DNA from: a virus
Taxonomy: Duplodnaviria; Caudoviricetes
IMG/VR virus record: IMGVR_UViG_2859564202_000001
DNA length: 64,000 nt
Strand: one strand, 5' to 3'
Shown in pieces: positions 1 to 52,082 of this stretch (the first letter of the stretch is position 1; the number at the start of each line of letters is the position of its first letter). The notes below the pieces were generated by a model. The model worked only from the letters and a program-made list of their open reading frames with translations, had not been told where the DNA came from and did no database searches. The translations under genes and the position numbers were made by a program.

Positions 1-1843
1 ACCCACCACCGGGTTGGTCATAAAGTTGCCGACCCAAAGCTTCAGCTGCACGTTCATCGCTCATGCGTGCCAAAGAACGATCTGCCCGCAGTGCACGCAG
101 ACCCACAACCCTTTTACCGTAATCAGCAACCTCAGCCCATTGCTTCTCCCACTGACCGACAGGTGGGGCAAAGGTCAAAAAGTGCTGGTACTTGGATTGG
201 CACATCGCATGATACTGCTCCTCAGTGTCATAAAAACTCCACATTACCTGTGAGGTGGGATCAGCCAAACCTTGAGAGTTAGCGTCCTCCCACGAGCGTT
301 TTTTCACGGCAAAGGCTTCTCGTTGTTCTCGGTGATGATTCAAGCGTGCTGAATACGACCGCAAACGCAGCCCAAATTCCTCAATACTTGGCTCAGGCTC
401 TTCTTTCCCCACCTCTTGTGATCCACTACTACCCTGCTCGTCTAGATCCTTGCTCTTCTTCCGCGCAATACCATCGAGCAAATCCTCATAGTCTTGACGC
501 ATGACTGTCAACATGGCCGTAGAGACATCGCGTTGCTCATCGGAAATCGCGGATAGGACACTGTAGACACCGTTCATGGCCTGCTCAATGATCTTTTCGC
601 GGCCATTATCAATCAAACGCTGGGTGTCCTGCTTGCTTAAACCTTCTTTAACGCGGCGTTTTTGCGCATACTGATAGACCTGCGACAGTGCTGCCGGCAT
701 CGGTGAATCAGTCTCACCAAGTCGCGCCTCCACCAACTCGCGCACTAATCTATTCGGCTTATCCATTTCCTTGGCATTGGTCGATGCACGCCACAGTCGC
801 TTATCCTCTGGCAAACAAGCGACCACAAATTGCGCAGCACTTTCTTGGGTGAGCTGATGAAACGCCCAGCGCTTGACGTAGCTGGTGACATTGCGTTTTT
901 CATACCCCACTGCTGCTGACAAGTGCGCCATATGCTGATGCTGATCAAGCCAGGCGTCAATACCACGCCGCAAAATAGCCTTACCTGGCTTATTGATTTT
1001 GCCTTTTTGCGTACCATCAGCAGCCCGGTGTCCATAACCAGCATCCACCATGGTCAAGTGGGCGTGCACATGCTTCGTATCAACCTGAATCACGCCGACA
1101 TAGCGCAAATCATCATAATGACGCTGGGCTAGACGATCCACACCATGCATGACAGCCATGCGTAGCTTCATTTGGTCAACCTGGCCGCGATAATCACCAG
1201 CACGCTTAATATCGAGATCCTCTGGAATAAGGCCATGCGCGGTCAGGTAATCCTGGGTAAAAGATAGGACCACTTTCATCACGGTATGCCTATTTTCATA
1301 GAGCTCTTGGACGTTATTACTTGCTGCATGAAGATCATCATGTGACAGCGAGACATCGCCATACCCAAAGGCCACTCCCCCATTACCCTGAGCCCTCAGC
1401 ATGAGATCATGAACGCGCTGCCCATCCTGGGTAGTAAATTCCGCGAGTTCCCTCGGGTGCACAGGTTGTGATGGGTTGGTGGTGTCGGAGTCTGTATTCA
1501 CGCCCGCTCGCAATGCTGCTCGCCGGGCGCTGCGTTCTGCACGACGTTGTTTCAAGGTCGCGCGGCGACCTTGCCGGCCACGACGAGAGTTCATTTCAGG
1601 TTGCTGGTCATAGTCTGCGTTACTGTCCGTGGTGAGCTGCTCCACGGCACTATCACGTGCCATATACCGCATGATGAAATCATCTAATTTATTGCGCACA
1701 ATAGGTGCTACTGCTTCTACCGCATCGCTGCGTGCCATATAGCCAGAGATATATTTACCTGGCGATGATCCTCGTGAACCTTTGCCATTTGCCTGCTTAA
1801 TCGTATATTCATTGCGCACGATAATGGCTTGTTTCAAACTCAT
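1..1843 (-). CDS. mobL: MobL-family HUH relaxase (3' end runs off the window)
   Basis: Hand translation from ATG at 1843 (MSLKQAIIVRNEY...) stays open to position 2. Contains GYMAR/RYMAR Tyr motifs, AFGYGDVSLS, VVLSF and YVGVIQVDTKHVHAH (HUH/3H motif). Absent from the ORF track because there is no stop in the window. Confidence 0.85.
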   Translation of the reverse strand, partial: MSLKQAIIVRNEYTIKQANGKGSRGSSPGKYISGYMARSDAVEAVAPIVRNKLDDFIMRYMARDSAVEQLTTDSNADYDQQPEMNSRRGRQGRRATLKQRRAERSARRAALRAGVNTDSDTTNPSQPVHPRELAEFTTQDGQRVHDLMLRAQGNGGVAFGYGDVSLSHDDLHAASNNVQELYENRHTVMKVVLSFTQDYLTAHGLIPEDLDIKRAGDYRGQVDQMKLRMAVMHGVDRLAQRHYDDLRYVGVIQVDTKHVHAHLTMVDAGYGHRAADGTQKGKINKPGKAILRRGIDAWLDQHQHMAHLSAAVGYEKRNVTSYVKRWAFHQLTQESAAQFVVACLPEDKRLWRASTNAKEMDKPNRLVRELVEARLGETDSPMPAALSQVYQYAQKRRVKEGLSKQDTQRLIDNGREKIIEQAMNGVYSVLSAISDEQRDVSTAMLTVMRQDYEDLLDGIARKKSKDLDEQGSSGSQEVGKEEPEPSIEEFGLRLRSYSARLNHHREQREAFAVKKRSWEDANSQGLADPTSQVMWSFYDTEEQYHAMCQSKYQHFLTFAPPVGQWEKQWAEVADYGKRVVGLRALRADRSLARMSDERAAEALGRQLYDQPGGG

Positions 1844-1934
1844 TTTCCCACCGCTCTTTCTTTAACTACAACAACAGCGCCCCCACCAAAAAAACGGTAA
1901 CGACGCTGTTGCTTCTCTTGATGCCTCACCTTGG

Positions 1935-2625: not shown

Positions 2626-3879
2626 TTATAGATCTAGCCCGCGTTCTGCAATTTTCTCATCAAACTTGCGCCCCTCCGCAGGTGATGCGTCATAGCCATG
2701 CTTTTGCTCGCGAATATATGCCTCACGCACAGATTCTTGAGTCTGAATCTTCTGTGCAACACGTCGGCTGGCTTCTCGCTGCGCGGTCTTAGCCCGTGAC
2801 TCGCGATCAAAATCAAGCTCTGTCGCAGAAATCTCTGCAGCACTGACACTTGCTGGCGCCTCTACCTCGGCGGTATTGACAACATCATCTGCATCAAGAT
2901 CAATCACGTCATCGAATTCAAGCTCATCAAGATCATGAATAACATCGTTAATCTCTGCAGCACTGACAGTTGGTGCTGCATCAACCTCAGTCTCAATATC
3001 GCTATCCCGCTCAGCCTCCCGCTCCACCACAGGCTCCTGGGCGCGAATCTTCTCGTTGTAGAACTCGGTAACCTCGCGCTCCCACTCACTCATACCAGCG
3101 GTGTCATCAAGATCATGGGCGAGGAATTGCTCAGCATCAAAGCTCTCTTCCGCACCAACAAGCACGGGTTCAGTCTGGAAGGAAATGCCAGCAAGTTTCG
3201 CCATCAACTGTGCTGCGCTCAGCGCTCGCTCCTGCTCAAGGCGCTGTGCATGTGCACTGACACCGGTACGGGTGCGGTTAGCATCAGCGAAAATATCTTT
3301 GCCTTCAATCTCTGCACGAGAAATTGACTCAGAGAAATCCTTGTCCGCCTCGCCCGCTTCACGCTGGCTACGGTAGTCCTCAAACATGCTGGTGAGCTCA
3401 TAGCCAGAGGATTCTTGACTAAAATCCACACCATGAATCTCAGATAAGCCCACAAGCACAATCGGTGGCGCATCCTGCGACTCTGGTGCCACGACAGTGA
3501 CATCGGCATTCATGGGTAGTTCCCACGGCAGGCTCGTCATCATCTCGCGCGGTGGCTGGAAACCTTCTAGATACAGACCTTTATCAATGAGCTCTTTATG
3601 CTGCTGTGGACTGAATTTATAAAATCCACTAAAACGCTGTTGGTTTTCTGAATCAAACGTAATTTTTTGAATGTCGTACGGTAGCTGCGACAATGCAGTC
3701 ACGCTGTCGATGGCACCCTCAACGTGCAATACCGGCTCATGCTGCGTGCCAATAAACTCAACTTCAACAACATCTGGGGTAAACACCGCGTACACCGGTG
3801 CATCGAGCTGTACCTTTTCACCCTGTTCGGCAACCCGCTGCGCTGCGGGTGAATTGGTGTTAAAACCTGCAAGCTTCAT
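2626..3879 (-). CDS. Acidic hypothetical protein in transfer gene cluster
   Basis: 417 aa ORF with RBS-like GAAAGAAA upstream, co-oriented with neighbours. D/E-rich C-terminal half with a repeated VSAAEI motif. Confidence 0.75.
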   Translation of the reverse strand: MKLAGFNTNSPAAQRVAEQGEKVQLDAPVYAVFTPDVVEVEFIGTQHEPVLHVEGAIDSVTALSQLPYDIQKITFDSENQQRFSGFYKFSPQQHKELIDKGLYLEGFQPPREMMTSLPWELPMNADVTVVAPESQDAPPIVLVGLSEIHGVDFSQESSGYELTSMFEDYRSQREAGEADKDFSESISRAEIEGKDIFADANRTRTGVSAHAQRLEQERALSAAQLMAKLAGISFQTEPVLVGAEESFDAEQFLAHDLDDTAGMSEWEREVTEFYNEKIRAQEPVVEREAERDSDIETEVDAAPTVSAAEINDVIHDLDELEFDDVIDLDADDVVNTAEVEAPASVSAAEISATELDFDRESRAKTAQREASRRVAQKIQTQESVREAYIREQKHGYDASPAEGRKFDEKIAERGLDL

Positions 3880-3926: not shown

Positions 3927-4625
3927 CTAGTTGCGAGCTGCTGCAACAGCGTCGTTGAGGGCGTCGTGTCGGTTCTTATCGTCTGACTCTTCTGGCTCAG
4001 ACTGTGCCTGTTGCGCCAGAGTCTCTTCAGCCTGTTGAGCCGAGTAAATGGCATCAAGTTTGCGCTGCTTTTTGGCTTCTTTAGCCTGCTGCTTAGTCAG
4101 CTTCTTTTCTGCTCGTGCGCGCTTCGCGTCGTCGCGAGAAATCTTTTCACGACCTGCGTATAACCCCTGTCGCAAAGTCATGGTGAAGCGCCACAATGCA
4201 CCAAAAATAAGATTGAGCACTTTCATGACCACCAGTGCCAGCACAATCATGAGAAACAGCACCGGGATGACCCAGCTAAAGAGGAACCCATCAGTAGTGG
4301 AGATAATCACACCAGCAGAAGCGCCGATGCTGGAAATAACCAGACTTGGCAGTACTGATACTCCCCACGTACCGATGATGGTGACCACAGTGCCAGCTGC
4401 AAGGATCGCTACCGGCCACACGGCGATGGCAAAAACCAGGAAAGCAAACCAACCACCAAGTGAACCAGTGAGCTTCCAGACCTTATCGACCCACGAAGGC
4501 CATCCACCGGTGCGTGCATTAATTGGTTCAACCGTGTTAACCGCTACCGCTTCTGCAATCTCAGCCTGTGCTGCATCATGAGCGTGCTGCAATTGACGCT
4601 GTTTCTTATTTTTCGCTCGTGCCAT
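3927..4625 (-). CDS. Integral membrane protein, probable conjugation-associated
   Basis: 232 aa with several hydrophobic segments and a basic coiled C-terminus. Confidence 0.7.
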   Translation of the reverse strand: MARAKNKKQRQLQHAHDAAQAEIAEAVAVNTVEPINARTGGWPSWVDKVWKLTGSLGGWFAFLVFAIAVWPVAILAAGTVVTIIGTWGVSVLPSLVISSIGASAGVIISTTDGFLFSWVIPVLFLMIVLALVVMKVLNLIFGALWRFTMTLRQGLYAGREKISRDDAKRARAEKKLTKQQAKEAKKQRKLDAIYSAQQAEETLAQQAQSEPEESDDKNRHDALNDAVAAARN

Positions 4626-4746: not shown

Positions 4747-5463
4747 TTAGCCCGAGTATTTCACACCACCGGGGACAGTACGTGCTTCGAGGTTACGAAT
4801 TTTGCCGTCGATCACGTCATAGGCAAGGCGTGAGGTAGAGGTTGTTTCTGCCTCACCACCAGAGCGCTTCGACTTCATCGTCACCGTGGATACATAGCTG
4901 TACTCTGTACCATTAATGCGAGTAACCACGGATTCTAAGCTGCTAAAGCGGTTGGACAGATCTGCATCATAGGCATAGTGCACTTCGCCAGTTGGATCGG
5001 TGCGAGCAATGCCCGCCATTTCACCAGGCATAAACACCGACATAAACTGTGATTCTTCATCCAGGTCATAAACCCGCATCACTTGCTCGCGCACATCAAG
5101 GTAGTCGCGCACGCTGTCCCACGTCAGCGCCATGGACAAAAATTCTCGAACAACAGCATCATCTGCAGCCTTGTGTTCAATATCCATACCACCGGTAGCG
5201 TCACGCACCACCTGCTCAAGTTGGCCCTCAAGCTTACTGTTTAATGCATCACGTTCCTGTTGCAAGGCCATAATCTCACCAGTTTGACGCTTAAGTACAG
5301 CATGTCGATCCGCAGAGGTGCTGGTGGCAACAATAATGACCACCACTGCCAAGATCAACGCAATGATCATGACGATATTGCGAACAAAAAAGCGCTTGAC
5401 CTGATCGAACATCGGCTCGTCCTCAGTTACACCACTCTGGTTATCTACATTTCGTGTCGTCAT
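4747..5463 (-). CDS. Bitopic membrane protein, VirB8/TcpC-like (NTF2-like) candidate
   Basis: N-terminal TM, coiled coil, then 'VVREFLSMALTW' helix and beta-rich C-terminus. Start overlaps the upstream stop. Confidence 0.55.
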   Translation of the reverse strand: MTTRNVDNQSGVTEDEPMFDQVKRFFVRNIVMIIALILAVVVIIVATSTSADRHAVLKRQTGEIMALQQERDALNSKLEGQLEQVVRDATGGMDIEHKAADDAVVREFLSMALTWDSVRDYLDVREQVMRVYDLDEESQFMSVFMPGEMAGIARTDPTGEVHYAYDADLSNRFSSLESVVTRINGTEYSYVSTVTMKSKRSGGEAETTSTSRLAYDVIDGKIRNLEARTVPGGVKYSG

Positions 5464-6473
5464 TATCTGTTCTCCTGTTTGTTCAGCTGAGCGATCTCTA
5501 GTGCCCGCTGCAGCTCATCAACGAAAATAGCCTCGCCCTCAAGCCCCCCGCCTTCACTGCCAGCACGTGCAGCGCTCGCCTCTGCATTTGTGCCGTGGGC
5601 ACCAAATTCACTTGGTGAGGTGGTTGCACCAATACGCTGGTGTCCTTCATAGGTATGCGCCAACGCCAGCGAGCTAAACACGCCGGTGTTGATGTTGTAA
5701 TCGGCTGTCACCCACGCCAACAGCGCACCGTCACGCTCACCTCCGGTCAAGCGGGCCTCCCACATCACCACAACGTGCTCGGTATCTGACATCGACAGTG
5801 TAGGGGTCACAGTCCATCCCCAGGACTCAGCCCCCATCGGCGCCCAGGTGGGTCGGTTGTTATCTCCGACAACAACTTCTTGTGGCTGGTACCAACGACC
5901 CGCCGCAGGAAATTCACCTGTCGTACCAGCAGAGACCGTGAATTTCGGTTTCAGCTCATCAACAATTGTCTTGAACTGCTCGGTCGCGGCATCATCATCA
6001 ACACTGGTAATAATGCCGGCTAACTGATTCTGTAAGTCAGCCACATTCTGTGCACGTGAGGTTGCTGCGTCAAATTGACTAGCAAGAGTCTCTTTTTTGG
6101 GCATTGTCTCTGCAGTGTTTTTTAAGTCGTTGACTTCATTACGCAGAGTGACAATCTGCTCATTGTTTGCACTCACCTTGTCGTCAAAGCCGCCCGAGGT
6201 GGTACTGATCCACAACGTTGTACCAATAAATACGGCGCCAGCCAGTACTGTGACAGCGATACGACCCAAACCAAACAATGGCTTACGCTTACGTGCATCT
6301 TCTTGCGCTTTTGCTAAACGACGTTTACGGATTTGTTCTGCACGACGACGCAGATCATCACCGGTAATCTTCTCGAACGCCTGCTTTTCTTTGTCGCTGC
6401 GCACTTCCCCATTGACGACCCCATCGACAGAGATGGGCTTAAGGTCATCCGACCCGCCATTATTCTCAGCCAT
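5463..6473 (-). CDS. Bitopic membrane protein with coiled coil, probable T4SS subunit
   Basis: 336 aa with a single TM, coiled coil and beta-rich extracytoplasmic domain. Coupled to the next gene. Confidence 0.55.
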   Translation of the reverse strand: MAENNGGSDDLKPISVDGVVNGEVRSDKEKQAFEKITGDDLRRRAEQIRKRRLAKAQEDARKRKPLFGLGRIAVTVLAGAVFIGTTLWISTTSGGFDDKVSANNEQIVTLRNEVNDLKNTAETMPKKETLASQFDAATSRAQNVADLQNQLAGIITSVDDDAATEQFKTIVDELKPKFTVSAGTTGEFPAAGRWYQPQEVVVGDNNRPTWAPMGAESWGWTVTPTLSMSDTEHVVVMWEARLTGGERDGALLAWVTADYNINTGVFSSLALAHTYEGHQRIGATTSPSEFGAHGTNAEASAARAGSEGGGLEGEAIFVDELQRALEIAQLNKQENR

Positions 6474-6603: not shown

Positions 6604-8265
6604 TTATCCTGCAGGAGTAGTTCGAGTTGGGTTAGTCATTTCGCCAATTTCTTTACCAGCCGGAATCTGTACACCAGAGAACACTGAGTTTGTCTCAGCC
6701 TGGGTGTTGCGGAACACCTTGAAGTTCACGCCCCATCCATCCAGACTCAAGGTATCCAGACCAGGTGAGCGGTCATTCAACGATGCATGACCAATAGCTG
6801 CATTAGGCTCTGCATTACCAGGGCCCAACATGTCCACAACAACCTCATTGCTGACATACATCGCAACGTGATTCGGTGCACCAAGAAGCACATCGCCAGG
6901 TAACAAATCGTTCTCTGACATGGTGGCAAGATTGCCGATTTCCTCCCAACGGCCCGATCCTGTGCCCACAACGTATTCATACTGTGCTGCTGTTGGACCT
7001 GCTGGGAACGTATCATCCGTGCCCGACCAGCGAATAGCGGTAGCAACGCCACGGTCACAGGATGCGTAATACGGATCACCGGTGAGCACTTCATCATGGA
7101 TATAGCGGTAAATATCAGTACCGTCATTGCCACGAGAATCAGCCAGATAAGGATGTGAAATAGTCACCATTGCTTCTGCAGCGGACGTATTTCCACCTGA
7201 GGTGCGGTCCTCTTCAGGACAATCATTAAGAGCATCCTGCTCATCACGCGCCGTGGATTTTGCTGCTGCACCATCAGCCATAGCGATCACAGACTCACCC
7301 AAGGTTGAGTTCTTTTGCCAACCACCCATCTGCGCGTACCACTTAGATGCTTGCTCTGCACGAATGGGTGCATTACCTGCGACATCTGCCGGGCGCTCCC
7401 ACTCACGCAGGAAGTACTCGGACGCTGCGGTGGGGCTATTGCTACTGGAGTTTTTATTATCAACCATTTCCAGAAAAACCTTGCGATCGCTTTCATTATC
7501 GCCACTAATAGCAAATGCAAGCTGCACGTCGATGTAATGCCAGTCTCGGTTTCTATCGGCGGCAAAATCTAGCAACATCTGTGTGCGCCCTGCTGTCCAC
7601 TGCCCAAGCCCAATACCCATCGGCTGAGGTTCAAAGTTCTTATCCCACGCAGCTCTCTTCCGAGGACCGATGGTATTTGGTTCATCAAAAATACCCTCCA
7701 CCGCAGTCGGGTCGATACCTGATTCTGTCTCAAAGTTGCCCAAGACACCGGCGATATTTTGATCATTCATCCCAAGATACGACAGCGCACCGTACACCAA
7801 CTTCGCGTTCTCAGTCATATCACCTGCGTCAATGGTAAACGGGTTGGCCGTTACTGGCGGCTCACACAACTCGATAATGCCGTCTTTTCGACCTGCCGGC
7901 ACCACAATCATCGACACAATCAACGCAATAGTCGTCACCGACGACAACACCGAGCCTGTACCTGCCAGCATTGCGCCTACACGTGCAGTGATCATGCCAC
8001 CTGTGGCAGCAGAGATACCAGTACCGGCAGACAGGGCAAGCCCCATCATTCGTGTCCACAGGTTTTTAGCCAAATTACCCATAGAGCGAGCACCATTGGC
8101 TGCAAGTGCTGCAGTACCAAAACCTACACGTAGTGCGCCATAACCTAAGCCTTGTGCAGCTGAGCGGGTCTTATCTTTTGCTTCATCAACAAACCCCGAG
8201 CTTCCCGAGTCACCATTATCAGGTGCATCGGGGGCATCATTTGGTTCTATAAAATCATTAGCCAC
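6604..8265 (-). CDS. Peptidoglycan hydrolase: phage-tail-lysozyme domain plus C-terminal CHAP/NlpC-like amidase (VirB1/TcpG analog)
   Basis: IAGVLGNFETESG...GIGLGQWT...WERP lysozyme motifs, SCDRGV...PGDVL...NHVAMYV Cys/His amidase motifs, N-terminal TM. Confidence 0.85.
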   Translation of the reverse strand: MANDFIEPNDAPDAPDNGDSGSSGFVDEAKDKTRSAAQGLGYGALRVGFGTAALAANGARSMGNLAKNLWTRMMGLALSAGTGISAATGGMITARVGAMLAGTGSVLSSVTTIALIVSMIVVPAGRKDGIIELCEPPVTANPFTIDAGDMTENAKLVYGALSYLGMNDQNIAGVLGNFETESGIDPTAVEGIFDEPNTIGPRKRAAWDKNFEPQPMGIGLGQWTAGRTQMLLDFAADRNRDWHYIDVQLAFAISGDNESDRKVFLEMVDNKNSSSNSPTAASEYFLREWERPADVAGNAPIRAEQASKWYAQMGGWQKNSTLGESVIAMADGAAAKSTARDEQDALNDCPEEDRTSGGNTSAAEAMVTISHPYLADSRGNDGTDIYRYIHDEVLTGDPYYASCDRGVATAIRWSGTDDTFPAGPTAAQYEYVVGTGSGRWEEIGNLATMSENDLLPGDVLLGAPNHVAMYVSNEVVVDMLGPGNAEPNAAIGHASLNDRSPGLDTLSLDGWGVNFKVFRNTQAETNSVFSGVQIPAGKEIGEMTNPTRTTPAG

Positions 8266-9785: not shown

Positions 9786-9880
9786 ACTTATTTTAACTAT
9801 TTAAAGACTAATTAAATTTAACACAATTAAATAAACAAACATACTGCATTATTTAACTCAACTAACGCCCCCAAAACATA

Positions 9881-10294: not shown

Positions 10295-10452
10295 ATTCAC
10301 CCTACTTTCCACACTATTCCCATAAGTAATAAACAACTTTTGTTATCACCTAGTAACTTAGTCTGTTTTTTAGTGGGTTTCAATTCCTAAATACATTTAT
10401 TATTTGGTTAATTAATAAGGATTAATCACCCCAGAAGAGTATATTAAAGGCA

Positions 10453-31876: not shown

Positions 31877-31880
31877 GTAG

Positions 31881-41864: not shown

Positions 41865-42695
41865 TCAAGAACTCAGAGACGATCCGGCAGGACGAATGAC
41901 ATCCACAGGTTCAGGCTGATCCGTCACCTCGATCACATATTGAACCTCTGAGTCCGAACCATCCGGGAAAGTCACTTCTGTACGAAACCACAGTTGACCG
42001 GTTCGATCATCAGGCGCCGTGAAGGTGAGATCGCCAGTCTTCTCATCTATGAGAATGATTGCACCCATCAACTCCGCATTCTCAATTGAGCCGTAACGAT
42101 CTCGGACCACCTTCGATCCCTGTGGGACCCCACCAACCGCTCCTGTACCACCATCCGTCACCCTCAATGGGATCTTGACAGTCTGACCATTGCGGACTTT
42201 AGGATAACCCGTGCTTTCAATGCCGTAGTAAATACTGTCAGCCACATAAACCACTGAATGGGGTGTCACTCTATCAAATGACCCATCAGGGTAGACCACC
42301 TTGACAGTCACTCGATCTGTATAAGATCGTTTCATTTCACCAGGGGTGTAGCTGATCCCCGAAGCCCCAAGAGTATGTCGAATCTCCCCTGTATTTGGGT
42401 CCAATCGAGAAGCGAGCAGACCATCATCAATAATAATTGAAAACGAATCACCCTCAAGTAAAAATCGAGTCTCCTCTGGTAATTCAGCAAGGTTTTCAAC
42501 AGACTGTTCAACCGACTTGGGAAAGACTCCACTAGAACCGAGACGCGTTTCTAAGGATTCATACCGTGGTTCATACTGAGCAGCCATAGACACATTTTCA
42601 TATGCAATCGCAACACCCGTGCCATTTACCGTTGCTCCGAACAACAGTGAACATGACAGTGCAGCGGTAACCAACGTGCGTGAACGTACCAACAT
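41865..42695 (-). CDS. Secreted YPDG/Rib-like domain protein (paralog B)
   Basis: Clear paralog of 29483-30322 including upstream DNA. C-terminal GSSLSS. Confidence 0.8.
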   Translation of the reverse strand: MLVRSRTLVTAALSCSLLFGATVNGTGVAIAYENVSMAAQYEPRYESLETRLGSSGVFPKSVEQSVENLAELPEETRFLLEGDSFSIIIDDGLLASRLDPNTGEIRHTLGASGISYTPGEMKRSYTDRVTVKVVYPDGSFDRVTPHSVVYVADSIYYGIESTGYPKVRNGQTVKIPLRVTDGGTGAVGGVPQGSKVVRDRYGSIENAELMGAIILIDEKTGDLTFTAPDDRTGQLWFRTEVTFPDGSDSEVQYVIEVTDQPEPVDVIRPAGSSLSS

Positions 42696-42851
42696 ACTTC
42701 TACACCACTTTCTAAATTAGAGATACTCTATGCCACCTCACAGTATAGGTACAGGATGTGTGGCGTTCCCTGCCCTCATGGACGGGGTTGCTGCGTACCA
42801 ACTGCCCTACACATTGCGAGAGCCGGATAACGCTTAAGTCTCAAGCAGAGA

Positions 42852-46277: not shown

Positions 46278-48710
46278 CTACCGCTTCGCCAGGCGCTTCT
46301 TCTCCACCTGTGCAAGCGCATCATCAAGATTCTTCGGCCCAGTTTTCAAAGCTAGTTCTTTCGCTTCTACATCATCAAGCTCCTTCATCTTGCGCGCAGA
46401 TTTCTCATCAAAGCGCTCTTCGCGGTGCTCGGCCTTCGCCTGAATTGCGACAACATCAAGATCCGCTGTGCCCACCATCGTCGTGCCACCACCGTAGTGC
46501 TTGTCTCGCTTGGATCGTCGCTGACCTCGCTGTGCTTCAATCTTGCGACGCTGCTCCATATAAGGATTAACGCCCAACGCAAGGTTGGTTTCAAACACCA
46601 CATTGGTAGATCCTCGGCGCAAATAGCTCGCACCAGAATTCTGCGTTGTCACCAACCGTGCCAAGTCCATCGGGATCTGACTATTAATCAGAGATTGATA
46701 AGTATCCACCGAGTCAACGTTCATCGGGCCCAAAATGGTGTACGCAGCACGTTGGAATTGATTGAAGCCAACAGTGCCAAGCATCGCGTCCATCGAGCTG
46801 TAGAGATACGCCACTCGCCCACCACGCTCAGCCATATATGCGAACTGATTAGCCAAATAATCCTGAACATCAACATCGACAATGCCATCAGCACCGTGAA
46901 TGATGACCACATCGCCTTGACCAAGCGTCTCCACAGCAAAACCAATCACGTTAACCAGCTGTGCCATCGCGACACCTGCGCCACGTCGCAGCACTCCAGA
47001 AAAATCATAGATCACGCGGCGTGCAGAGTTCACAGAATCAATGCCATCTGCCGTGTGCTGATTAAACAGATCGCCATGAGTATCGAGCAAATCCTTATAG
47101 GTCAGTCGCAGCACAGAAATGGCACGAAACATTTCAGGGTCTTTGGTTCCCTCATATTTCTGGCGCTCATATTCTTGATCCAAATAGGACACGAAGACAG
47201 AGAGCAACGGGATCTGCTCATGAGGCACACCAACAAGACGCAGCTTGTCACGGTTTTCACCGGCATTAAGAGCCCACATTTTCATATCCACATAAAAGGC
47301 TGTAATAATTTCTTTGAGCTTTCCGCGCAATAGCGCCAGCTCAGAGGTCTTATCGCCCAATGCCTGCTCGGTCATAAACACGATTTTGTCCATGTGTGTG
47401 GAATACAGCGACAGCTCATCTTCTTGCTTACCAAACAGCTCGAACATGTTGAGATCTCCGCTAGTCATATCCACATGAGCGGTCATGGATTCTAGCTTTG
47501 GTCCCATTTCATCGAGCTTGGCACCATTGAGCACCAGGTGCACTACGCGACGGTTATTCAGTAGCGCTGCCTGAGAAATCTTCGACCCCCACATGTCAAC
47601 GACACGGGGACGCTTAAGTAGTGGTGATGTATTAATCGAGCTATCTGCGCATACGACATGTCCCGACCAGCGATCCACATCAAAAAGCACAGCGGAGTTG
47701 TTGACATCGCCACGCATGACACCGACGTATTCGCCAGCAACATCGTTAAGACCATTGGTGACCAAAGAATAAGAACCGGCAAACTCAGTCGAGGTGAAGT
47801 GGAATCCTTTACCTCGCTTTTTGCTATTTTTGCCAAAAATCTGTGACAGTTCTTGACGTTGCTCACCGTGGTGTGCAGCAATATCCATTCGCGATAAGTG
47901 CTCGATAAAACTGCGTCGAATTTTCTCAACAGTCGAATCCAAGATCTCAAGGTTTGGTCCACGCAGCAGCAGACGGTTGTGCACAGTCAAATATGATGCA
48001 CCATCATCAAGCTCGGCGATCACCTCATCAAGATCAAGTCCACGCTTAACAGTCTTGCGGCGGTTGGACTTAGTGGAAGAATCAGCCAAGTCTGATTCTT
48101 CTGTCTTAGCTAGTCGGTCAGTATTTTTCAGATTGTCATCAATCCATGACTGCTTCATCCGCTCCACTTGCTCAAAAAGCACAGCTGAGACACCCTCAGG
48201 CAGATTGCGTGGAATGCGGTTGACGCCCCAGAAAGCACCGAATTCATCCTTGGCATCCTCATTGTGGAAAAACGACAAAATAGTGCCGATTTCATCATCC
48301 ACCTCAAAATAATCCGAGTGGAAAACATAGTGCTCCCTCGGCTTAATCACCATGAGGTGACCGTGATTTTCCATGGTGCCCAGCGCTGCCTGAGCGTCCT
48401 TTTTCTGCTGACGAGTCATCGTCTCGTCATCGAGCTCATCACTAATTTCTTCCACGTCATGCGCATCGGTATCGGTGGCACGATCATCAAATTCACCAAA
48501 ACCAAATGATCCACTCAGTGTGCGCGCGGTGCGCGCAGGTACAGGTGGGATCGGGTCTGATTCGGAGGTGCGACCAATGATGCGAGCTCCTAACGAAGGT
48601 GCTGGGAGCGGTGCTTCTACAGCAGTGGTAGTGGTTTCTTCAGCCTCCGTAGTAAGTGATGCAGCAGGTTCTTGTGCCCGTTTGTTCTTGAGCTTGTTAA
48701 AAAGTTTCAT
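46278..48710 (-). CDS. VirB4/TcpF-like protein with degenerate Walker motifs
   Basis: 810 aa with VirB4-like architecture (G.YVG...VLFD, NMFE, IYDFS), directly after a TcpE-like gene. No GxxxxGK[ST] visible. Confidence 0.6.
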   Translation of the reverse strand: MKLFNKLKNKRAQEPAASLTTEAEETTTTAVEAPLPAPSLGARIIGRTSESDPIPPVPARTARTLSGSFGFGEFDDRATDTDAHDVEEISDELDDETMTRQQKKDAQAALGTMENHGHLMVIKPREHYVFHSDYFEVDDEIGTILSFFHNEDAKDEFGAFWGVNRIPRNLPEGVSAVLFEQVERMKQSWIDDNLKNTDRLAKTEESDLADSSTKSNRRKTVKRGLDLDEVIAELDDGASYLTVHNRLLLRGPNLEILDSTVEKIRRSFIEHLSRMDIAAHHGEQRQELSQIFGKNSKKRGKGFHFTSTEFAGSYSLVTNGLNDVAGEYVGVMRGDVNNSAVLFDVDRWSGHVVCADSSINTSPLLKRPRVVDMWGSKISQAALLNNRRVVHLVLNGAKLDEMGPKLESMTAHVDMTSGDLNMFELFGKQEDELSLYSTHMDKIVFMTEQALGDKTSELALLRGKLKEIITAFYVDMKMWALNAGENRDKLRLVGVPHEQIPLLSVFVSYLDQEYERQKYEGTKDPEMFRAISVLRLTYKDLLDTHGDLFNQHTADGIDSVNSARRVIYDFSGVLRRGAGVAMAQLVNVIGFAVETLGQGDVVIIHGADGIVDVDVQDYLANQFAYMAERGGRVAYLYSSMDAMLGTVGFNQFQRAAYTILGPMNVDSVDTYQSLINSQIPMDLARLVTTQNSGASYLRRGSTNVVFETNLALGVNPYMEQRRKIEAQRGQRRSKRDKHYGGGTTMVGTADLDVVAIQAKAEHREERFDEKSARKMKELDDVEAKELALKTGPKNLDDALAQVEKKRLAKR

Positions 48711-48712
48711 CT

Positions 48713-48780
48713 ATCCCCAATTCAGTTTAAGAGAAATATATTAAAGAAACTTTAACACAAAGAAAGTAGCTATTAAATGT
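48713..48780 (-). promoter_or_regulatory. Conserved promoter block (copy 2)
   Basis: Same three motifs as 22031-22100 with near-identical spacing. Confidence 0.55.
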
Positions 48781-48875
48781 CATTTTAATAGCTTATCTGC
48801 ACCCCAGTTGCTTACCCACAGACATGAAAAAACAGGCTGCTGGATCATCCAACAGCCTGCATCAAACTCCAGGTG

Positions 48876-49745
48876 CTACTTTTTCTTATGTCCGTAAATG
48901 CTGCGCAACAGGTCATTAACCTCAAAACCGTTGAGCTGGCGGCACTGTTTATACATCGCACTTGAGTTTTCTACCTCAGAGAGCAAAATCTCTTGCGCAG
49001 TATGCAGTGCAGCGTCATTGGGTGAATGCAGCGTCAAATACTGGTGAATTGAGCTGAATTTTCCACCTACGTCATAACGCAAAATATCAAGCGATTCCTC
49101 CATGAGTTTGGTGAGCTCAGGGTGTCGATACACTAAGTTCTGATTTTTACGCTCGACGTTGGCGACCTGGCTAAATACGGCTTGAGATTCTTTCGTCGTG
49201 ATGAAATTCCACTGCGTATCTGTTTCCACCTTTTGCCAAAAAGAATCTACGCGGTCAACGATTTGGCCGCGATCACCAGAAAACAACAGTGCTGAGGCCG
49301 TGCCTACGACAGAGTAGAAATAACCGACGCTGCCGTCCAAATAACGCACATAGCCATCTTCATCAACACTTTTAATACCGACAAGCTGCATAAATGGGTA
49401 TGGTGCGGTATCACGTCGTGTAGAAATTCTACGGTGTTGTTTCTGCAGATAGCCGAACAGAGCCGGCAGCTGCATAAACTTCATTTCCTTGGTCTTAGTC
49501 CACTGTCCGAAATACGCAGCAAAACCAATCACCCACAGCACGATAATGATTTTCAGCCACACCGGTGAGTGCTTGACCGGTGGTGTCATAATCACAGCTG
49601 CAGTGGAAATAAACACTACAAACCAAAACAGCAAGACTTTAACAGGGATAACACCAAGGCTAAACGACTTGGTAGTAATCGGAGTCTCATAATCCAGCAC
49701 ACTGCGTGCTAGAGACGGTGGAACTTTGTACTCTGCTTTTGCCAT
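48876..49745 (-). CDS. VirB3/TcpE/PrgI-like two-TM protein with cytoplasmic domain
   Basis: Two N-terminal TM helices, AAAGAAGGTG RBS, upstream of the VirB4-like gene. Confidence 0.55.
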   Translation of the reverse strand: MAKAEYKVPPSLARSVLDYETPITTKSFSLGVIPVKVLLFWFVVFISTAAVIMTPPVKHSPVWLKIIIVLWVIGFAAYFGQWTKTKEMKFMQLPALFGYLQKQHRRISTRRDTAPYPFMQLVGIKSVDEDGYVRYLDGSVGYFYSVVGTASALLFSGDRGQIVDRVDSFWQKVETDTQWNFITTKESQAVFSQVANVERKNQNLVYRHPELTKLMEESLDILRYDVGGKFSSIHQYLTLHSPNDAALHTAQEILLSEVENSSAMYKQCRQLNGFEVNDLLRSIYGHKKK

Positions 49746-49802
49746 CTCACACCTTCTTTCTTCAACAAATGGTTTGTTTCTTCTAGTGCACGTACTTGTG
49801 CG

Positions 49803-52082
49803 TTAATCGCGTGGTGCGAGCTGGAAGCCGACGAACGAATTACCGTTGTACTCGCCGCGCTGCAGCGATCCCCGAGCGGTGTACGGCTTCTTGGCCTTCG
49901 ACATGGCATCAAAAGCAATCTCGCGGCCCTCAAGCAGATCGGCGATCTCCTTGTCGGTGAACTTGTGACCACCCCATACGCGCTTGAAGCGAATCTTTTC
50001 ACCCTCAACCTTCCACACACCCACCGCGTACACAGCTGGGTCTGCAGAGGCAATGCGATCAACCTGCCCCTTAAACCCAAAGAACTTAATGGTCTTGCCG
50101 TCTTTGTTAAAGCTTTGATGCGCCAGCTTGCCGGTGACTGTCGTGATCTGTCCACCAATCATGGCATCGGTAATGGTGAGCTCCTCACCGCGCAGCAACG
50201 CCTCGCATTCTGCATCGCTAAATTCATGCCCGCAGTAGACCTTCTTAAAGCTCACCTGCTCACCGTTCCAGGTGCCGGAGTGCTTGACAGAAGGGGTAAA
50301 AGTAGTAGTCATGAGTTTCTTTCCTAGTTCTTGGGGGATGTTTTTTGCGTTACGGGTCATGGTCGCAATATCTTCTTCGACCCACTGTTTAACTGGTTCC
50401 AGTGCCTGCTCTGCAGTCTTTTCACCAGCAGCAACCGCTGCCATATCGGCATAAACGCGCTCGGTAAGTTTGAGGTCGCCAATGTGGGTGCCAGGAAGCA
50501 GCAGATAATTCAGTTGCCCTGCGTCAGTCATAGTGACTTTGCCACGCGTTTCTTTGAGCAATGCTGACTTGCCGGCTGTGACCTCGGCATAGGTGCTCGT
50601 TCGTGTCGCACCGGTACCGACATCATGCTTATCGAGCTGTTTCATCAACCACGTCATTGACGGATGCGGTGGTCGCTGCGGAAAACCCTCAAACACTTCT
50701 GGCTCAGCACGAGTACCAATCCCCTGCTGTGCTGCATCACTGCCGGCAGCATCATCATCAGCCTCAGCGTCTACGTCGAAAATACCTTTCCAACCCAAGG
50801 ACTTTGGCACATTTGCTGTACCGAGAAACGCTGGGTAATCCACGACGCGGCCTTTTTGGTGCTCATAGAGGTAATCCTCTGCCAGCATCGTGAGATAGCT
50901 CTTAGCGAGCACTTCATAAATGCGCTGTCCGAGCACACCGTAGGTGGTTTTCACCGCTGCAATACTGGTCGGCACATTCAAACCCGGACGGTTGGCGCCG
51001 TGTGCACCCTTGGGCTTAACATGCGTGGACCGTGGCTGTCGGTGCGTAAGGTCAGCCGGGTTCACACCAACCAGGCCGGCGATCTTATCGACCAACGGCG
51101 CTAGTTCCTTAAACTGCTCAGGGGTAATCGTCTTATCCTCGGTACGCGGATAAGACACGACCTGCGCCTCGTACATCTGCTGATAAGTCTTAAGCACGTT
51201 CTTTGCGCTAAAGCCCTCTTTAGACAGCAGGGCCGACAGGCTCGCCAGGTCAAGTAGACGTGGTGGCGCGGTCTTTTTCATGCTCTTCTCATAGCATTCG
51301 ACCGCACTAGCCTTATAAAGCTGTGGTACCTCGTCGCAAGTCTTATAACGCGGTTCCTCGGGGTTGACGTAACTTACACCGTGATCATCAATGAAGCGGT
51401 TTTGATAAAAAGGAATCTTTTTATAATCGTTGTACGCATCTAAGCCCTGCCCCACAATCGCAACCATGGCAGATTTCAGGCGACCATTGCGCAACACTGC
51501 ACGCCGACCAGTGGTCTCTAGCACTTTGGTGGCACCGCGAGTCCACTGCATCGACAGCAAATCAAAGCGTGATCGGAATTCCGCCTTAAGATAATTGGGC
51601 TCGTCATGCATGGAGGTCACATCGCGGCGGTTGATAAACGCCTGCTGAATCGAGGCCGGCGCCTCATCAACAAATTCCATACGCTGAATCTTCTTGGTGT
51701 CTAACCCCAGCTCAGCGATAATCTCCCACGCCAACAGATCACCTTCGCCCGTGGGATCAATATCTGATCCGATCACAATGGTGGTGCAGCTGCTCAAGGT
51801 TTTCTTAATGCGTGCAATCGTGTTAGCTGCACCGTGCTTTTGCTCGCGTGACCACAAAAACTGCGTCTCATCCCACGGCAGCTTAGCCAGATCCCAGTAG
51901 CCGCCGATCTTATCGGCATAGCTTGGTGGCACCATCTCTTCTGGCTCGACAAATTCATAAAGGTGCCCGCTGGCTGCAGCAATAACGTACTTCTCGCCGT
52001 TATAAGTGCCAGAGGGTCCACCGAGGGCTTTCGCAAAGTTTTTCGCAGCCGAAGCTTTCTCCGTCAAAATTCCAATTGTCAA
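49803..52082 (-). CDS. Type IA DNA topoisomerase (TopB/TraE-like) with C-terminal repeats
   Basis: TEK, GHL, DIDPTGEG, SYPRTE (catalytic Tyr), AHGANRP, GTGATR. Two C-terminal G.W...FK....GH.F.D.E...LL.G repeats. Confidence 0.93.
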   Translation of the reverse strand: MTIGILTEKASAAKNFAKALGGPSGTYNGEKYVIAAASGHLYEFVEPEEMVPPSYADKIGGYWDLAKLPWDETQFLWSREQKHGAANTIARIKKTLSSCTTIVIGSDIDPTGEGDLLAWEIIAELGLDTKKIQRMEFVDEAPASIQQAFINRRDVTSMHDEPNYLKAEFRSRFDLLSMQWTRGATKVLETTGRRAVLRNGRLKSAMVAIVGQGLDAYNDYKKIPFYQNRFIDDHGVSYVNPEEPRYKTCDEVPQLYKASAVECYEKSMKKTAPPRLLDLASLSALLSKEGFSAKNVLKTYQQMYEAQVVSYPRTEDKTITPEQFKELAPLVDKIAGLVGVNPADLTHRQPRSTHVKPKGAHGANRPGLNVPTSIAAVKTTYGVLGQRIYEVLAKSYLTMLAEDYLYEHQKGRVVDYPAFLGTANVPKSLGWKGIFDVDAEADDDAAGSDAAQQGIGTRAEPEVFEGFPQRPPHPSMTWLMKQLDKHDVGTGATRTSTYAEVTAGKSALLKETRGKVTMTDAGQLNYLLLPGTHIGDLKLTERVYADMAAVAAGEKTAEQALEPVKQWVEEDIATMTRNAKNIPQELGKKLMTTTFTPSVKHSGTWNGEQVSFKKVYCGHEFSDAECEALLRGEELTITDAMIGGQITTVTGKLAHQSFNKDGKTIKFFGFKGQVDRIASADPAVYAVGVWKVEGEKIRFKRVWGGHKFTDKEIADLLEGREIAFDAMSKAKKPYTARGSLQRGEYNGNSFVGFQLAPRD

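Follow-up and report, generated by a model that had tools for sequence, protein, structure and literature searches.

Identity of the element

The 64,000-nucleotide stretch analysed here (the window) is recorded as DNA of a tailed virus (Caudoviricetes), and it is the same DNA as CGP3 (cg1890–cg2071) of Corynebacterium glutamicum, the annotation order from cg2014 to cg2069 being matched. In the literature, CGP3 is a cryptic prophage which is induced by the SOS response or by loss of CgpS silencing, excises and replicates, and its induction results in cell death; a relaxase, a type IV secretion system (T4SS) or conjugation are never mentioned for CGP3 in these reports, no transfer has been described, and similarity to the plasmid pGKT2 had been noticed only for alpAC. 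The original prediction, made from the sequence alone, proposed an ICE or integrated conjugative plasmid rather than a classical prophage, and the question is which type of mobile element CGP3 represents. Its integration site is the tRNA-Val 3' end. A 35-nt direct repeat is found there, with a second copy next to a tyrosine integrase at a distance of about 210 kb. The backbone genes described below for the window, and the lipoprotein gene, lie on the minus strand, and cg numbers were assigned from gene order and annotation text, not from sequence identity.

Conservation of the gene module and comparison with pGKT2

The comparison set comprised 80 loci from other Actinomycetota, including Nocardiopsis, Streptomyces, Arthrobacter, Leifsonia, and Actinomyces. 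In these loci and on pGKT2, the same genes are found in the same order in a contiguous block of about 12–25 kb; in the relatives, the MobL relaxase gene directly follows the module, and the coupling protein is encoded about 10 kb further on. The recurrence of the same genes in the same order beside the VirB4-like gene across genomes is far more than expected by chance.

The closest parallel was provided by pGKT2 of Gordonia sp. KTR9 (NC_018580, 182,454 bp), which matches 40 ORFs located between 1.777 and 1.975 Mb of the genome (G001), colinear with a circular permutation. As in CGP3, the pGKT2 genes encode a topoisomerase, a helicase, a two-TM protein, a VirB4-like protein, a polytopic protein, a small two-TM protein, and an anchored protein, followed by a "phage tail tip lysozyme", bitopic proteins, relaxase MobL, a ClpB-like ATPase, and a 1412-aa coupling protein. 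Shared as well are a homologue of a 2169-aa protein, alpC, Lsr2/CgpS, P4-type primase, and RecJ-like genes, with identities in the range of 34–71%. According to PMC5640721, a second-hand source, Jung 2011 reported that pGKT2 is transferred from Gordonia to recipients of the genera Gordonia, Rhodococcus, and Nocardia. Strain KTR9 carries other plasmids, which could have mobilised pGKT2. The two elements differ in that pGKT2 exists as a free circular plasmid, encodes ParA, has its coupling-protein gene intact, and lacks the two islands described below. In CGP3, which is integrated at tRNA-Val, the coupling-protein gene is split and the transfer operon contains insertions of about 30 kb.

Relaxase and coupling protein

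A 922-aa ORF (L001:575–3343) crosses the left end of the window, so that only its N-terminal part of 614 aa is encoded inside (2–1843). The predicted HUH/MobL relaxase was borne out by a PF18555 match with an E-value of 5.7e-54 for this part and 1.5e-53 for the full ORF (184 bits at a cut-off of 28.5), comprising an N-terminal relaxase domain with the His-triad motif HVHAH. The protein, which probably corresponds to cg2016 or an adjacent gene, shares 44% identity with the pGKT2 product annotated as "relaxase MobL". Unlike known MobL relaxases, the founding PF18555 member of which is the Bacillus pLS20 relaxase, the CGP3 enzyme is found in an actinobacterium and has about 470 more C-terminal residues without a family match. 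It also differs in having a shortened paralogue encoded directly upstream (1935–2537, 200 aa; PF18555 E-value 9.5e-11, profile positions 63–168), in which the metal-binding motif is degenerate (YVYAH) and which is possibly a relaxase accessory protein.

The flanks, where a VirD4 coupling protein was to be sought, do contain one within the element, 9–21 kb to the left of the window, but its gene is interrupted twice, by about 1.7 kb and about 6 kb, and thus consists of three ORFs. In this genome, one of the pieces has modest Pfam support (T4SS-DNA_transf, E-value 3.5e-8 at L003:5990–7672) and is 65–71% identical to the middle of intact coupling proteins of 1351–1427 aa from relatives and pGKT2. 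Because the gene is in pieces, the chances that the CGP3 copy is still self-transmissible are about even.

Membrane and cell wall components

Upstream of the relaxase genes are those of a conserved 417-aa backbone protein (2626–3879), with homologues at the same position in loci L016 and L021 and on pGKT2, and a polytopic 232-aa membrane protein with hydrophobic segments (3927–4625), the pGKT2 homologue of which occupies the same position with 35% identity. The two predicted bitopic proteins are encoded next. The first one (4747–5463, 238 aa; homologues in 16 loci and on pGKT2) consists of an N-terminal TM helix, a coiled coil, and an NTF2-like domain (residues 95–230), modelled by AF2 with a pLDDT of about 75–95 per 10-residue block. 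The top 18 VIA matches of this protein were all VirB8-family structures (Z 9.3–10.9), and the top Foldseek matches were TraH of pIP501 and CagV, so that a VirB8-like fold is present, in line with the original prediction. The second one (5463–6473, 336 aa) is a coiled-coil protein with a TM helix at residues 66–84 and homologues in five loci and on pGKT2.

The protein predicted as a "lysozyme/amidase" (6604–8265, 553 aa, probably cg2021) is a peptidoglycan hydrolase anchored in the membrane through residues 99–117; a lysozyme domain was identified (Phage_lysozyme2, E-value 2.9e-29) and resembles that of phi29 gp13 (E-value 8e-7), while no amidase domain was found. This gene keeps its position on pGKT2 and S. 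aureus plasmids as well as in 19 of the loci, and its place within the transfer module in relatives and plasmids fits the proposal that the "phage lysozyme" is the transfer hydrolase. An N-terminally anchored extracytoplasmic protein (8295–9785, 496 aa) is encoded next; its homologues, present in 21 loci as well as on pGKT2, invariably lie between the hydrolase and a small two-TM protein. For the latter, originally described as pilin-like (9935–10336, 133 aa, TM 56–74 and 98–116), homologues were detected in 17 loci, where their genes come right after the polytopic one.

The predicted 1488-aa polytopic protein (17509–21975, probably cg2032) is present in the VirB6 position, as its gene directly follows the VirB4-like gene on pGKT2 and in 78 of the 80 loci. 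About 8–10 hydrophobic segments are located within its first 840 aa, whereas the C-terminal half is of low complexity. A Pfam search returned no match, and one neighbouring cluster in the ESM Atlas (score 0.90), with TrbL in 42% of its members, offers a weak lead. Topology, gene position, and this language-model lead suggest that the protein may be the VirB6 counterpart.

The VirB4-fold protein and adjacent genes

The 810-aa VirB4-like protein (46278–48710, probably cg2062) has a full VirB4 fold with both domains, as revealed by a Foldseek search with its AF2 model (pLDDT 82.6): TrwK/VirB4 of R388 was matched with an E-value of 2.6e-15 over about 620 columns (TMt 0.77 for 4ag6). The N- and C-terminal domain folds agree with those of TrwK and of Thermoanaerobacter pseudethanolicus VirB4 (8rtd, 7o43, 4ag5/4ag6), and the "INP" motif region is conserved between the CGP3 protein and TrwK/VirB4, at a sequence identity of about 10–17%. 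At the sequence level, the protein matches NCBIfam VirB4_plasma (E-value 1.2e-5), its family profile matches 4AG5 (E-value 0.0086), and none of the 67 family members has a Pfam match. Unlike in TrwK/VirB4, a loop of variable length replaces the P-loop in this family, and hhhhHGx[DE] is found in place of Walker B. A Walker A pattern was found in only 4 of the 67 members, at four different non-homologous positions, and in none of the 67 at the expected P-loop site. No T4SS is known in which the ATPase activity of VirB4 is dispensable, and the lack of both Walker motifs counts against CGP3 as a conjugative element.

Directly upstream, in the VirB3/PrgI position, the predicted two-TM protein was confirmed (48876–49745, 289 aa, TM 35–53 and 62–80; probably cg2063); homologues are present in 79 of the 80 loci with a median identity of 43%. 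It is followed by the type IA topoisomerase (49803–52082, probably cg2064), likewise confirmed by matches to Topoisom_bac (E-value 1.9e-30) and Toprim (E-value 5e-8) and located upstream of the module in 57 of the 80 loci and on pGKT2. Beyond the range covered by the original prediction, the backbone continues with an SF1 helicase (53460–55547, probably cg2065; Pfam AAA_19, AAA_30, UvrD), which is 49% identical to the product of the pGKT2 gene adjoining the topoisomerase gene and has a sub-threshold C-terminal match to PDDEXK_3 (E-value 0.004, 17.9 bits at a curated cut-off of 22). A conserved 119-aa protein (63168–63527), encoded upstream of the topoisomerase in relatives, gave tblastn matches in 35 of the 80 loci.

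Taken as a part list, the CGP3 genes correspond to the minimal set of Gram-positive T4SSs (pCF10 Prg/Pcf, pIP501 Tra, ICEBs1 Con, pCW3 Tcp): a relaxase, a coupling protein, a small two-TM protein followed by a VirB4-fold protein, a polytopic protein in the VirB6 position, a bitopic VirB8/NTF2-like protein, whose fold matches include TraH (pIP501), TcpC (3ub1), PrgL (7aed), and ICESt3 OrfG, and a membrane-anchored cell-wall hydrolase. CGP3 differs from those systems in that none of their Pfam families is matched at the sequence level, the VirB4-fold protein is devoid of Walker A and B, the coupling protein of this type is very large (about 1400 aa), and the module includes a conserved ClpB-like AAA+ protein as well as a conserved topoisomerase.

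Cargo islands and expression

The backbone genes, which the original prediction described as dispersed, are indeed spread over 50 kb of the window; however, they are contiguous in relatives, and the dispersal results from the insertion of two cargo/defence islands (7.2 and 24.3 kb) in a once contiguous operon. Island 1 (10337–17508; GC content 0.40–0.45) encodes a GIY-YIG nuclease, a DUF3800 protein, and others, and is absent at this site in relatives, where about 1 kb separates the polytopic and two-TM genes. Island 2 (21976–46277) carries genes for a lipoprotein, AbiTii, an HTH regulator, RibLong and LGFP secreted proteins, and an SDH/ClpP-like protease, together with an IS and what is left of a second VirB4-like gene, at a site where the VirB4-like and polytopic genes of relatives are 0.1–0.5 kb apart. 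The lipoprotein (22221–22802, lipobox LSAC), previously counted in the backbone, is missing from all 80 loci and is therefore cargo.

A duplicated promoter and leader, which extends into the VirB4-like coding sequence by its initial codons (MKLF), precedes the polytopic gene (22007–22117, minus strand; repeat D9, alignment A4), and an exact GTGTTAAAGT is found before three backbone genes, so that backbone segments are preceded by a shared promoter element and the duplicated leader. The duplicated copy probably kept the downstream part of the backbone expressed after the island insertion.

Published RNA-seq data (PMC6173762, Table S2) show that the backbone genes are co-induced well above the islands. 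In unsorted cells, cg2003–cg2023 were mostly up by log2 5.0–7.7 (4.3 for cg2006) and cg2062–65, including the helicase gene, by log2 6.0–7.3; cg2032 has no value in this column and was up by log2 5.2 in sorted cells. Island genes were up by only log2 1.6–3.6, those of island 1 by 1.6–3.1 versus 6.6–7.7 for the backbone. In the table for the SOS-positive subpopulation, the window is represented only by cg2014–23, cg2032, and cg2062–65.

Phage or conjugative element

No window ORF of at least 100 aa matches a capsid, portal, terminase, or tail family, and six virion hallmark families (HK97 capsid, two portal, two terminase, and tape-measure) are all absent from the whole genome, in agreement with the predicted lack of virion genes in this region. 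For the VirB4-like protein, matches were obtained on 187 plasmids, but not in a single one of 50,697 phage records. Together with the colinearity with pGKT2, the absence of virion hallmark genes supports the proposed ICE or integrated conjugative plasmid. CGP3 is thus very probably such an element of about 210 kb, related to pGKT2-type actinobacterial conjugative megaplasmids, with most of its mating-pair-formation and DNA-processing module located in the window. The death of cells upon induction is more typical of a phage and counts against this assignment.

It is unlikely that CGP3 is a composite, in which an ICE or plasmid backbone is joined to an unrelated prophage remnant or forms a phage-plasmid hybrid, with non-core parts such as the 20 kb or so between the right end of the window and the integrase being phage-derived. 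That right-hand segment (L005) is on the opposite strand and has no pGKT2 match except SSB, and a diverged segmental duplication of about 12 kb, along with the second VirB4-like remnant, shows past accretion or recombination; however, the genome lacks the six virion families, and pGKT2 matches cover almost the whole element, from alpC to SSB. Less probable is a degenerate tailed prophage, in which the lysozyme would serve as a tail lysin or endolysin and the T4SS-like genes would be incidental cargo. The phage-like behaviour described in the literature, the similarity to the phi29 tail lysozyme gp13, and the occurrence of Lsr2 and P4-type primases in actinophages would agree with it, but the conserved core is colinear with a plasmid, neither the six virion hallmark families in the genome nor the VirB4-like gene in 50,697 phage records was found, and the T4SS genes are the most strongly induced of the element rather than silent cargo. 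Least probable of all is an apparatus which does not move CGP3 DNA and serves protein secretion, neighbour killing, or DNA uptake, or is an inert relic which the host keeps for its cargo: the missing ATPase motifs, the interrupted coupling-protein gene, and the many defence-type cargo genes (e.g., AbiTii, DUF3800, and, from the literature, R-M systems) speak for it, but the relaxase and coupling protein are conserved beside the module in relatives and plasmids, the ORFs are intact and co-induced, and the Walker-less state, common to a whole family with about 50% identity across genera, implies a selected function.

For CGP3 as a conjugative element, the following scheme could be proposed. The first step, excision and replication of the element once it is induced by the SOS response or released from CgpS silencing, is published; the MobL relaxase would then nick a putative oriT, and the large coupling protein would pass the relaxase-DNA complex to an envelope channel. 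This channel would be formed by the two-TM, VirB4-fold, 1488-aa polytopic, and VirB8-like proteins, together with other bitopic proteins. Local opening of the peptidoglycan would be due to the membrane-anchored lysozyme, and topoisomerase IA and the SF1 helicase would process the DNA. The energy for the channel could come from the coupling protein, and perhaps also from the conserved ClpB-like AAA+ protein, the VirB4-fold protein without a P-loop most likely being a structural hub. The unusual point of this system is that an entire family of VirB4-like proteins, outside any Pfam family, is devoid of both Walker A and Walker B.

Identity of the Analysed Region

The window was found in a complete genome of 3,309,401 bp (G001) at approximately 1,904,036–1,966,740 with 100% identity, except for a 1.3-kb insertion sequence present in the window only. 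Its gene order corresponds, gene for gene, to the published annotation order cg2014–cg2069 (Table S2 of PMC6173762). The annotations begin with hypothetical proteins, three membrane proteins, a protein 'similar to p18 of phage Cp-1', a secreted protein, a membrane protein, and an 'excinuclease nuclease subunit', and include, further along, HTH_3, psp3, 'similar to pXO2.09', a membrane protein, topoisomerase I, a helicase, and psp1. A Corynebacterium glutamicum control genome was also matched in searches with the MobL and coupling-protein families. Taken together with the annotation order, these matches identify the window as the right-hand part of the 'cryptic prophage CGP3' (cg1890–cg2071) of C. 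glutamicum ATCC 13032. The cg numbers used here follow from gene order and the wording of the annotations; they do not rest on sequence identity.

A Conserved Module Opened by Two Islands

All genes of the minus-strand series named in the original prediction are present on that strand. A scan of the window against Rfam, at gathering thresholds, gave no hit. To determine their context in other genomes, loci related to the VirB4-like gene were collected with an alignment of 18 sequences, which yielded 80 loci at about 50% identity; the 810-aa sequence alone retrieved no relative, and contigs encoding two members of the family were only 3–4 kb long and gave no useful context. The 80 loci belong to Nocardiopsis, Streptomyces, Arthrobacter, Kribbella, Leifsonia, Microbacterium, Actinomyces MAGs, and a few Clostridia MAGs. 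A tblastn search of the region within 10 kb of the VirB4-like gene detected the 289-aa two-TM protein in 79 of the 80 loci, the polytopic protein in 78, and the topoisomerase in 57; the small two-TM protein, 496-aa protein, lysozyme, and bitopic proteins were found wherever the 10-kb flank extends to them. The order in the relatives is invariable, namely topoisomerase, two-TM, VirB4-like, polytopic, small two-TM, 496-aa, lysozyme, 336-aa, 238-aa, and 417-aa proteins, and occupies about 12 kb. In Leifsonia and an Actinomyces MAG, the module is followed by a MobL relaxase, a ClpB-like AAA+ protein, a homologue of the 831-aa protein, and a single coupling protein of 1351–1390 aa.

In the window, the backbone genes keep the order of the relatives but are spread over 50 kb, with islands of 7.2 kb (10,337–17,508) and 24.3 kb (21,976–46,277) between them. 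Both islands have a lower GC content. Their cargo comprises a GIY-YIG nuclease, DUF3800, AbiTii, an HTH regulator, Rib- and LGFP-domain surface proteins, a ClpP-like protease, and an IS. Among these, AbiTii (23207–24154, E 1e-34), DUF3800 (16309–17241, E 6.5e-14), a 503-aa protein whose C-terminal domain is a GIY-YIG nuclease (10687–12198), and an SDH/ClpP-like serine protease (30932–31876) are cargo of defence-type or accessory families. The lipoprotein counted as part of the backbone in the original prediction is real (lipobox LSAC) but sits in an inserted island; like the LGFP- and Rib-domain proteins, it was rejected as a backbone component, being present in none of the related loci.

Several repeated or mobile sequences were observed in the islands. 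The ~1.3-kb insertion sequence (36957–38252) belongs to the IS3 family and has an rve transposase ORF (37319–38215), terminal inverted repeats of ~26 bp, and a 3-bp target duplication (TGG); its absence from the otherwise identical G001 genome indicates recent transposition. An element of ~170 nt occurs twice in island 2 (24827–24993 and 30546–30713), 5.7 kb apart; the copies are 87–97% identical, each contains a 49-nt hairpin, and they flank the genes for a 607-aa protein, a SecB-like protein, an HTH protein (cg2040), a 169-aa protein, and RibLong. These copies could be mobile-cassette boundaries or regulatory elements. A 52-nt palindromic terminator-like sequence is present twice in island 1 (13169–13220 and 17255–17306; 94% identical, 4.1 kb apart), the second copy lying just downstream of the polytopic gene. 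Island 2 also holds, at ~34492–35202 (G001 1938531–1939238), the remnant of a second VirB4-like gene, covering the C-terminal 234 aa with 64% identity and one stop codon, and the RibLong gene is duplicated ~12.4 kb apart (29534–30386 and 41916–42759). The remnant and the RibLong duplication point to an old, diverged segmental duplication of ~12 kb or to a second related element accreted inside the island.

A VirB4 Fold without Walker Motifs

The 810-aa protein (46278–48710), described as VirB4-like in the original prediction, matched no Pfam or PHROG family, and phmmer found no match among PDB sequences. The NCBIfam model VirB4_plasma gave E 1.2e-5, far under the cut-off of that model, and a profile of 67 family members had Thermoanaerobacter VirB4 (4AG5) as its best PDB match with E 0.0086. 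The predicted structure (AlphaFold2, mean pLDDT 82.6) settles the fold of this protein as that of VirB4: the best Foldseek match was full-length TrwK/VirB4 of R388 (E 2.6e-15, ~620 aligned columns, both domains), the VirB4 C-terminal domain 4ag6 was matched with a TM-score by target of 0.77, and HerA and TrwB ranked lower, with E values at least six orders of magnitude weaker. ESM Atlas neighbours concur with this fold.

Despite the VirB4 fold, the Walker A and Walker B motifs of the VirB4 ATPase were not found in the CGP3 protein. The pattern GxxxxGK[ST] does not occur in it; among the other 66 family members, the pattern occurs in four, at four different non-homologous positions, and in none at the expected site. 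At this site, a loop of variable length precedes xWGxKIA, in which the Lys is present in 31 of 67 members, and the Walker B strand, canonically hhhhDE, reads hhhhHGx[DE] in the family. The family comprises 243 cluster representatives at E ≤ 0.001, and Pfam gave no match for any of the 67 members sampled. Among 301 sampled genomes of the host's order, the 810-aa protein was matched only in the near-identical genome of the window itself, so vertical inheritance within the order is not supported by the genomes searched.

VirB8-like and Polytopic Proteins

A homologue search with the 238-aa bitopic protein retrieved one near-identical sequence only, and the protein was therefore folded with 14 homologues, consisting of this sequence and 13 derived from the related loci. 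The model contains a TM helix, a coiled coil, and an alpha+beta domain (residues 95–230, with pLDDT of roughly 75–95 per 10-residue block). The best 18 VIA-align matches of this domain all belong to the VirB8 family, with Z of 9.3–10.9 and rmsd of 2.8–4.2 Å over 109–125 residues; they include TraM, the VirB8 proteins of Rickettsia, Brucella, Bartonella, and Agrobacterium, CagV, TraE, DotI, IcmL-like proteins, and TraH of pIP501. Generic NTF2 folds reached Z values of up to 9.2, within ~1–2 Z units of the VirB8 family, which is a small margin, and Foldseek matches had E values of 2e-3 or weaker, none reaching E ≤ 0.001. Judged by its modelled fold and its topology with an N-terminal TM helix, the 238-aa protein is VirB8-like, in agreement with the VirB8 analogue proposed in the original prediction.

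The first 840 residues of the 1488-aa polytopic protein contain ~8–10 hydrophobic segments, its tail is of low complexity, and no Pfam match was detected. Its gene directly follows the VirB4-like gene in 78 of the 80 loci. By this topology and position, the protein would take the VirB6 role; a weak lead is one language-model neighbour cluster in ESM Atlas (score 0.90), in which 42% of members carry TrbL.

Relaxase, Lysozyme, and Coupling Protein

The relaxase is encoded by a 922-aa ORF, of which the first 614 aa lie inside the window (2–1843). It matches the MobL family PF18555 with E 5.7e-54 (184 bits versus a cut-off of 28.5) and carries the His triad HVHAH, in line with its earlier assignment as MobL; phmmer with the relaxase found no match among PDB sequences. 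Directly upstream (1935–2537), a 200-aa protein paralogous to the N-terminal domain of the relaxase is encoded; its metal-binding His motif is degenerate (YVYAH versus HVHAH). The topoisomerase in the window is of type IA.

The product of the lysozyme gene (6604–8265) contains a Phage_lysozyme2 domain (E 2.9e-29) similar to the lysozyme domain of phi29 gp13 (E 8e-7), preceded by a TM anchor (residues 99–117), and the position of the gene inside the module is conserved. The lysozyme part of the predicted 'lysozyme/amidase' was thus borne out, while no amidase domain was found. A dedicated membrane-anchored peptidoglycan hydrolase is a feature of Gram-positive conjugative T4SSs, and this gene provides one. 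An equivalence of the window lysozyme with cg1974, a published 'phage lysin' that serves as a CGP3 reporter and is reported to be weakly lytic alone, was ruled out by gene order, which makes the window gene correspond to cg2021; the cg1974 data were set aside.

A VirD4 coupling protein was looked for in the flanks, as suggested in the original prediction, and homologous VirD4/TraG sequence is indeed located 9–21 kb to the left of the window, but it is distributed over three ORFs (L003:9350–10645, L003:5990–7672, and L004:18432–19955 in the left-flank segments) instead of one. The ORF L003:5990–7672 matches PF02534 (E 3.5e-8) and is 65–71% identical to the middle of intact coupling proteins of 1351–1427 aa. 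In an end-to-end alignment, the three ORFs match the intact 1412-aa protein of plasmid pGKT2 from Gordonia sp. KTR9 with 43%, 71%, and 38% identity. Beside the coupling protein, a 2169-aa protein is encoded (L004:7342–13851; G001 ~1,871,377–1,877,886) that is conserved in Leifsonia, the Actinomyces MAG, and pGKT2 (38–44% identity). It shows a weak match, under the cut-off, to RNA polymerase Rpb2 domain 6 (E 4.8e-4) and, on this sequence basis, may be a non-canonical two-barrel RNA polymerase.

Relationship of CGP3 to Plasmid pGKT2

The top plasmid match of the VirB4-like protein is pGKT2 (182,454 bp), with 54% identity. The annotation of this plasmid carries the module of CGP3, including 'relaxase MobL', 'phage tail tip lysozyme', and 'type IV secretory system conjugative DNA transfer family protein'. 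When all ORFs of G001 between 1.764 and 2.000 Mb were compared with pGKT2, 40 ORFs matched, colinear with a circular permutation of the plasmid: AlpC (pGKT2 5.5 kb); the RecJ-like protein, P4-type primase, 1263-aa protein, helicases, Lsr2 (=CgpS), and AAA proteins (155 to 126 kb); the 2169-aa protein, coupling-protein pieces, Clp, MobL, and the transfer module through topoisomerase and helicase (82 to 32 kb); and SSB (22 kb). Homologues of alpAC on pGKT2 were noticed earlier by Donovan et al. By sequence comparison, the whole CGP3 element is a relative of this plasmid. According to PMC5640721, Jung et al. 2011 reported transfer of pGKT2 from Gordonia to Gordonia, Rhodococcus, and Nocardia.

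CGP3 is delimited by two copies of a 35-nt direct repeat ~210 kb apart, one including the 3' end of tRNA-Val(cac) (L094:12578–12650; G001 1,776,660) and the other at 1,986,915; the repeat is followed by further shared blocks of 41, 21, and 17 nt. A tyrosine integrase in the right flank (L005:18699–19850, E 1.8e-10) adjoins the right repeat copy. CGP3 therefore has both the integrase and the flanking direct repeats (att) of an ICE. Immediately beyond the left end, seven tRNA genes form a cluster. Excision and replication of CGP3 after induction have been described (PMC6173762, PMC4446434). The transfer competence of the CGP3 copy today is uncertain, since its coupling-protein gene is split, its VirB4-like protein is without Walker motifs, and no report of CGP3 self-transfer was found in the literature searched.

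Prophage or Conjugative Element

If CGP3 were a tailed prophage, capsid, portal, large-terminase, and tape-measure genes would be expected. A six-frame search of the whole 3.31-Mb genome (E ≤ 0.01) for the HK97 capsid, two portal, two large-terminase, and tape-measure families (PF05065, PF04860, PF05133, PF03354, PF03237, and PF10145) gave no match, while control genomes were matched; the search reaches these six families and not virion proteins divergent from them. No virion-family match was obtained among window ORFs of at least 100 aa either, as the original prediction had stated. The VirB4-like protein matched 187 plasmids and none of 50,697 phage records. The window thus very probably carries the conjugative-type backbone of an ICE or integrated plasmid: the relaxase, the VirB4 fold, the VirB8-like fold, the colinearity with pGKT2, and the lack of hallmark virion families all support this original reading.

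Typing with MOB-suite classified 169 of the 187 plasmids as non-conjugative (105 non-mobilisable and 64 mobilisable). pGKT2 was typed as 'mobilizable', and an S. aureus plasmid with the same module as 'non-mobilizable'. Distant VirB4-like members (25–27% identity) were observed on this 55.5-kb S. aureus plasmid (NZ_CP150776) and on about 100 E. faecium plasmids. The module of the Firmicutes plasmids, labelled non-mobilisable by MOB-suite, consists of a large coupling protein, a two-TM protein, the VirB4-like protein, a giant polytopic protein, a topoisomerase, and a 'phage tail tip lysozyme'.

Expression of the Dispersed Backbone

Published RNA-seq data on the induction of CGP3 by CgpS counter-silencing (PMC6173762; log2 fold changes, unsorted cells) show that cg2003–cg2023 are mostly upregulated by 5.0–7.7 (cg2006 by 4.3) and cg2062–cg2065 by 6.0–7.3, while the island genes cg2024–31 and cg2033–61 are upregulated by only 1.6–3.6. 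For cg2032, the data set holds no value for unsorted cells and an increase of 5.2 in sorted cells. The table for the SOS-positive subpopulation lists, from the stretch covered by the window, only cg2014–23, cg2032, and cg2062–65. The strong induction of the backbone relative to the islands and this listing indicate that the dispersed backbone behaves as one regulon.

A shared promoter sequence could be the reason. The motif GTGTTAAAGT occurs in exactly three copies in the window, all on the coding strand and 28–51 nt upstream of a start codon, namely ahead of the topoisomerase (52110–52119), the VirB4-like gene, and an 18-codon mini-ORF; a near-copy with one mismatch precedes the 496-aa gene (9815–9824). 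We take this motif to resemble the extended -10 element of C. glutamicum promoters. Moreover, a stretch of ~90 nt with the promoter and leader of the VirB4-like gene, together with the first codons of this gene (MKLF), recurs ahead of the polytopic gene (48690–48800 and 22007–22117), where it forms the mini-ORF, which overlaps the GTG start of the polytopic gene. The duplication of the leader would have kept the polytopic gene expressed after the 24-kb insertion.

Implications

Throughout the searchable literature, CGP3 figures as a (cryptic) prophage, and no paper there ties it to a relaxase, a T4SS, or conjugation. As ICEs and Gram-positive T4SSs are both well established, in kind the element is very probably an ICE or integrated conjugative plasmid. 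Relative to this literature, three points seem new: a well-studied model 'prophage' is reclassified; a variant T4SS has a VirB4 without nucleotide-binding motifs across a large family missed by standard profiles; and typing tools label 169 of 187 carrier plasmids non-conjugative.

A more far-reaching reading, which we regard as tentative and rather doubtful, is that the Walker-less VirB4 fold and its fixed partners (the two-TM, giant polytopic, and VirB8-like proteins, the anchored lysozyme, topoisomerase IA, the ~1400-aa coupling protein, and the ClpB-like AAA+ protein) constitute a distinct, unrecognised conjugation apparatus with VirB4 as a non-catalytic hub. Such an apparatus would be widespread, on Actinomycetota chromosomes and megaplasmids and on plasmids of Enterococcus, Lactiplantibacillus, and Staphylococcus, mostly typed as non-mobilisable; it would explain the long-noted excess of relaxases over detectable T4SSs in actinobacteria, and CGP3 would remain an ICE able to transfer, splicing having restored its coupling protein.

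Guglielmini et al. 2011 characterised actinobacteria as having 'many MOB, but few T4SS', and a transfer system invisible to standard profiles would help to account for this gap. A VirB4 without a P-loop would challenge the universality of VirB4 ATPase activity in T4SSs.

Prophage induction, xenogeneic silencing (CgpS), and the positioning of 'viral' DNA (AlpAC) are often studied with CGP3 as a model, and the element was deleted in the construction of the industrial chassis strain MB001. If CGP3 is an integrated conjugative megaplasmid, the results obtained with this model concern the biology of ICEs and plasmids, not that of phages.
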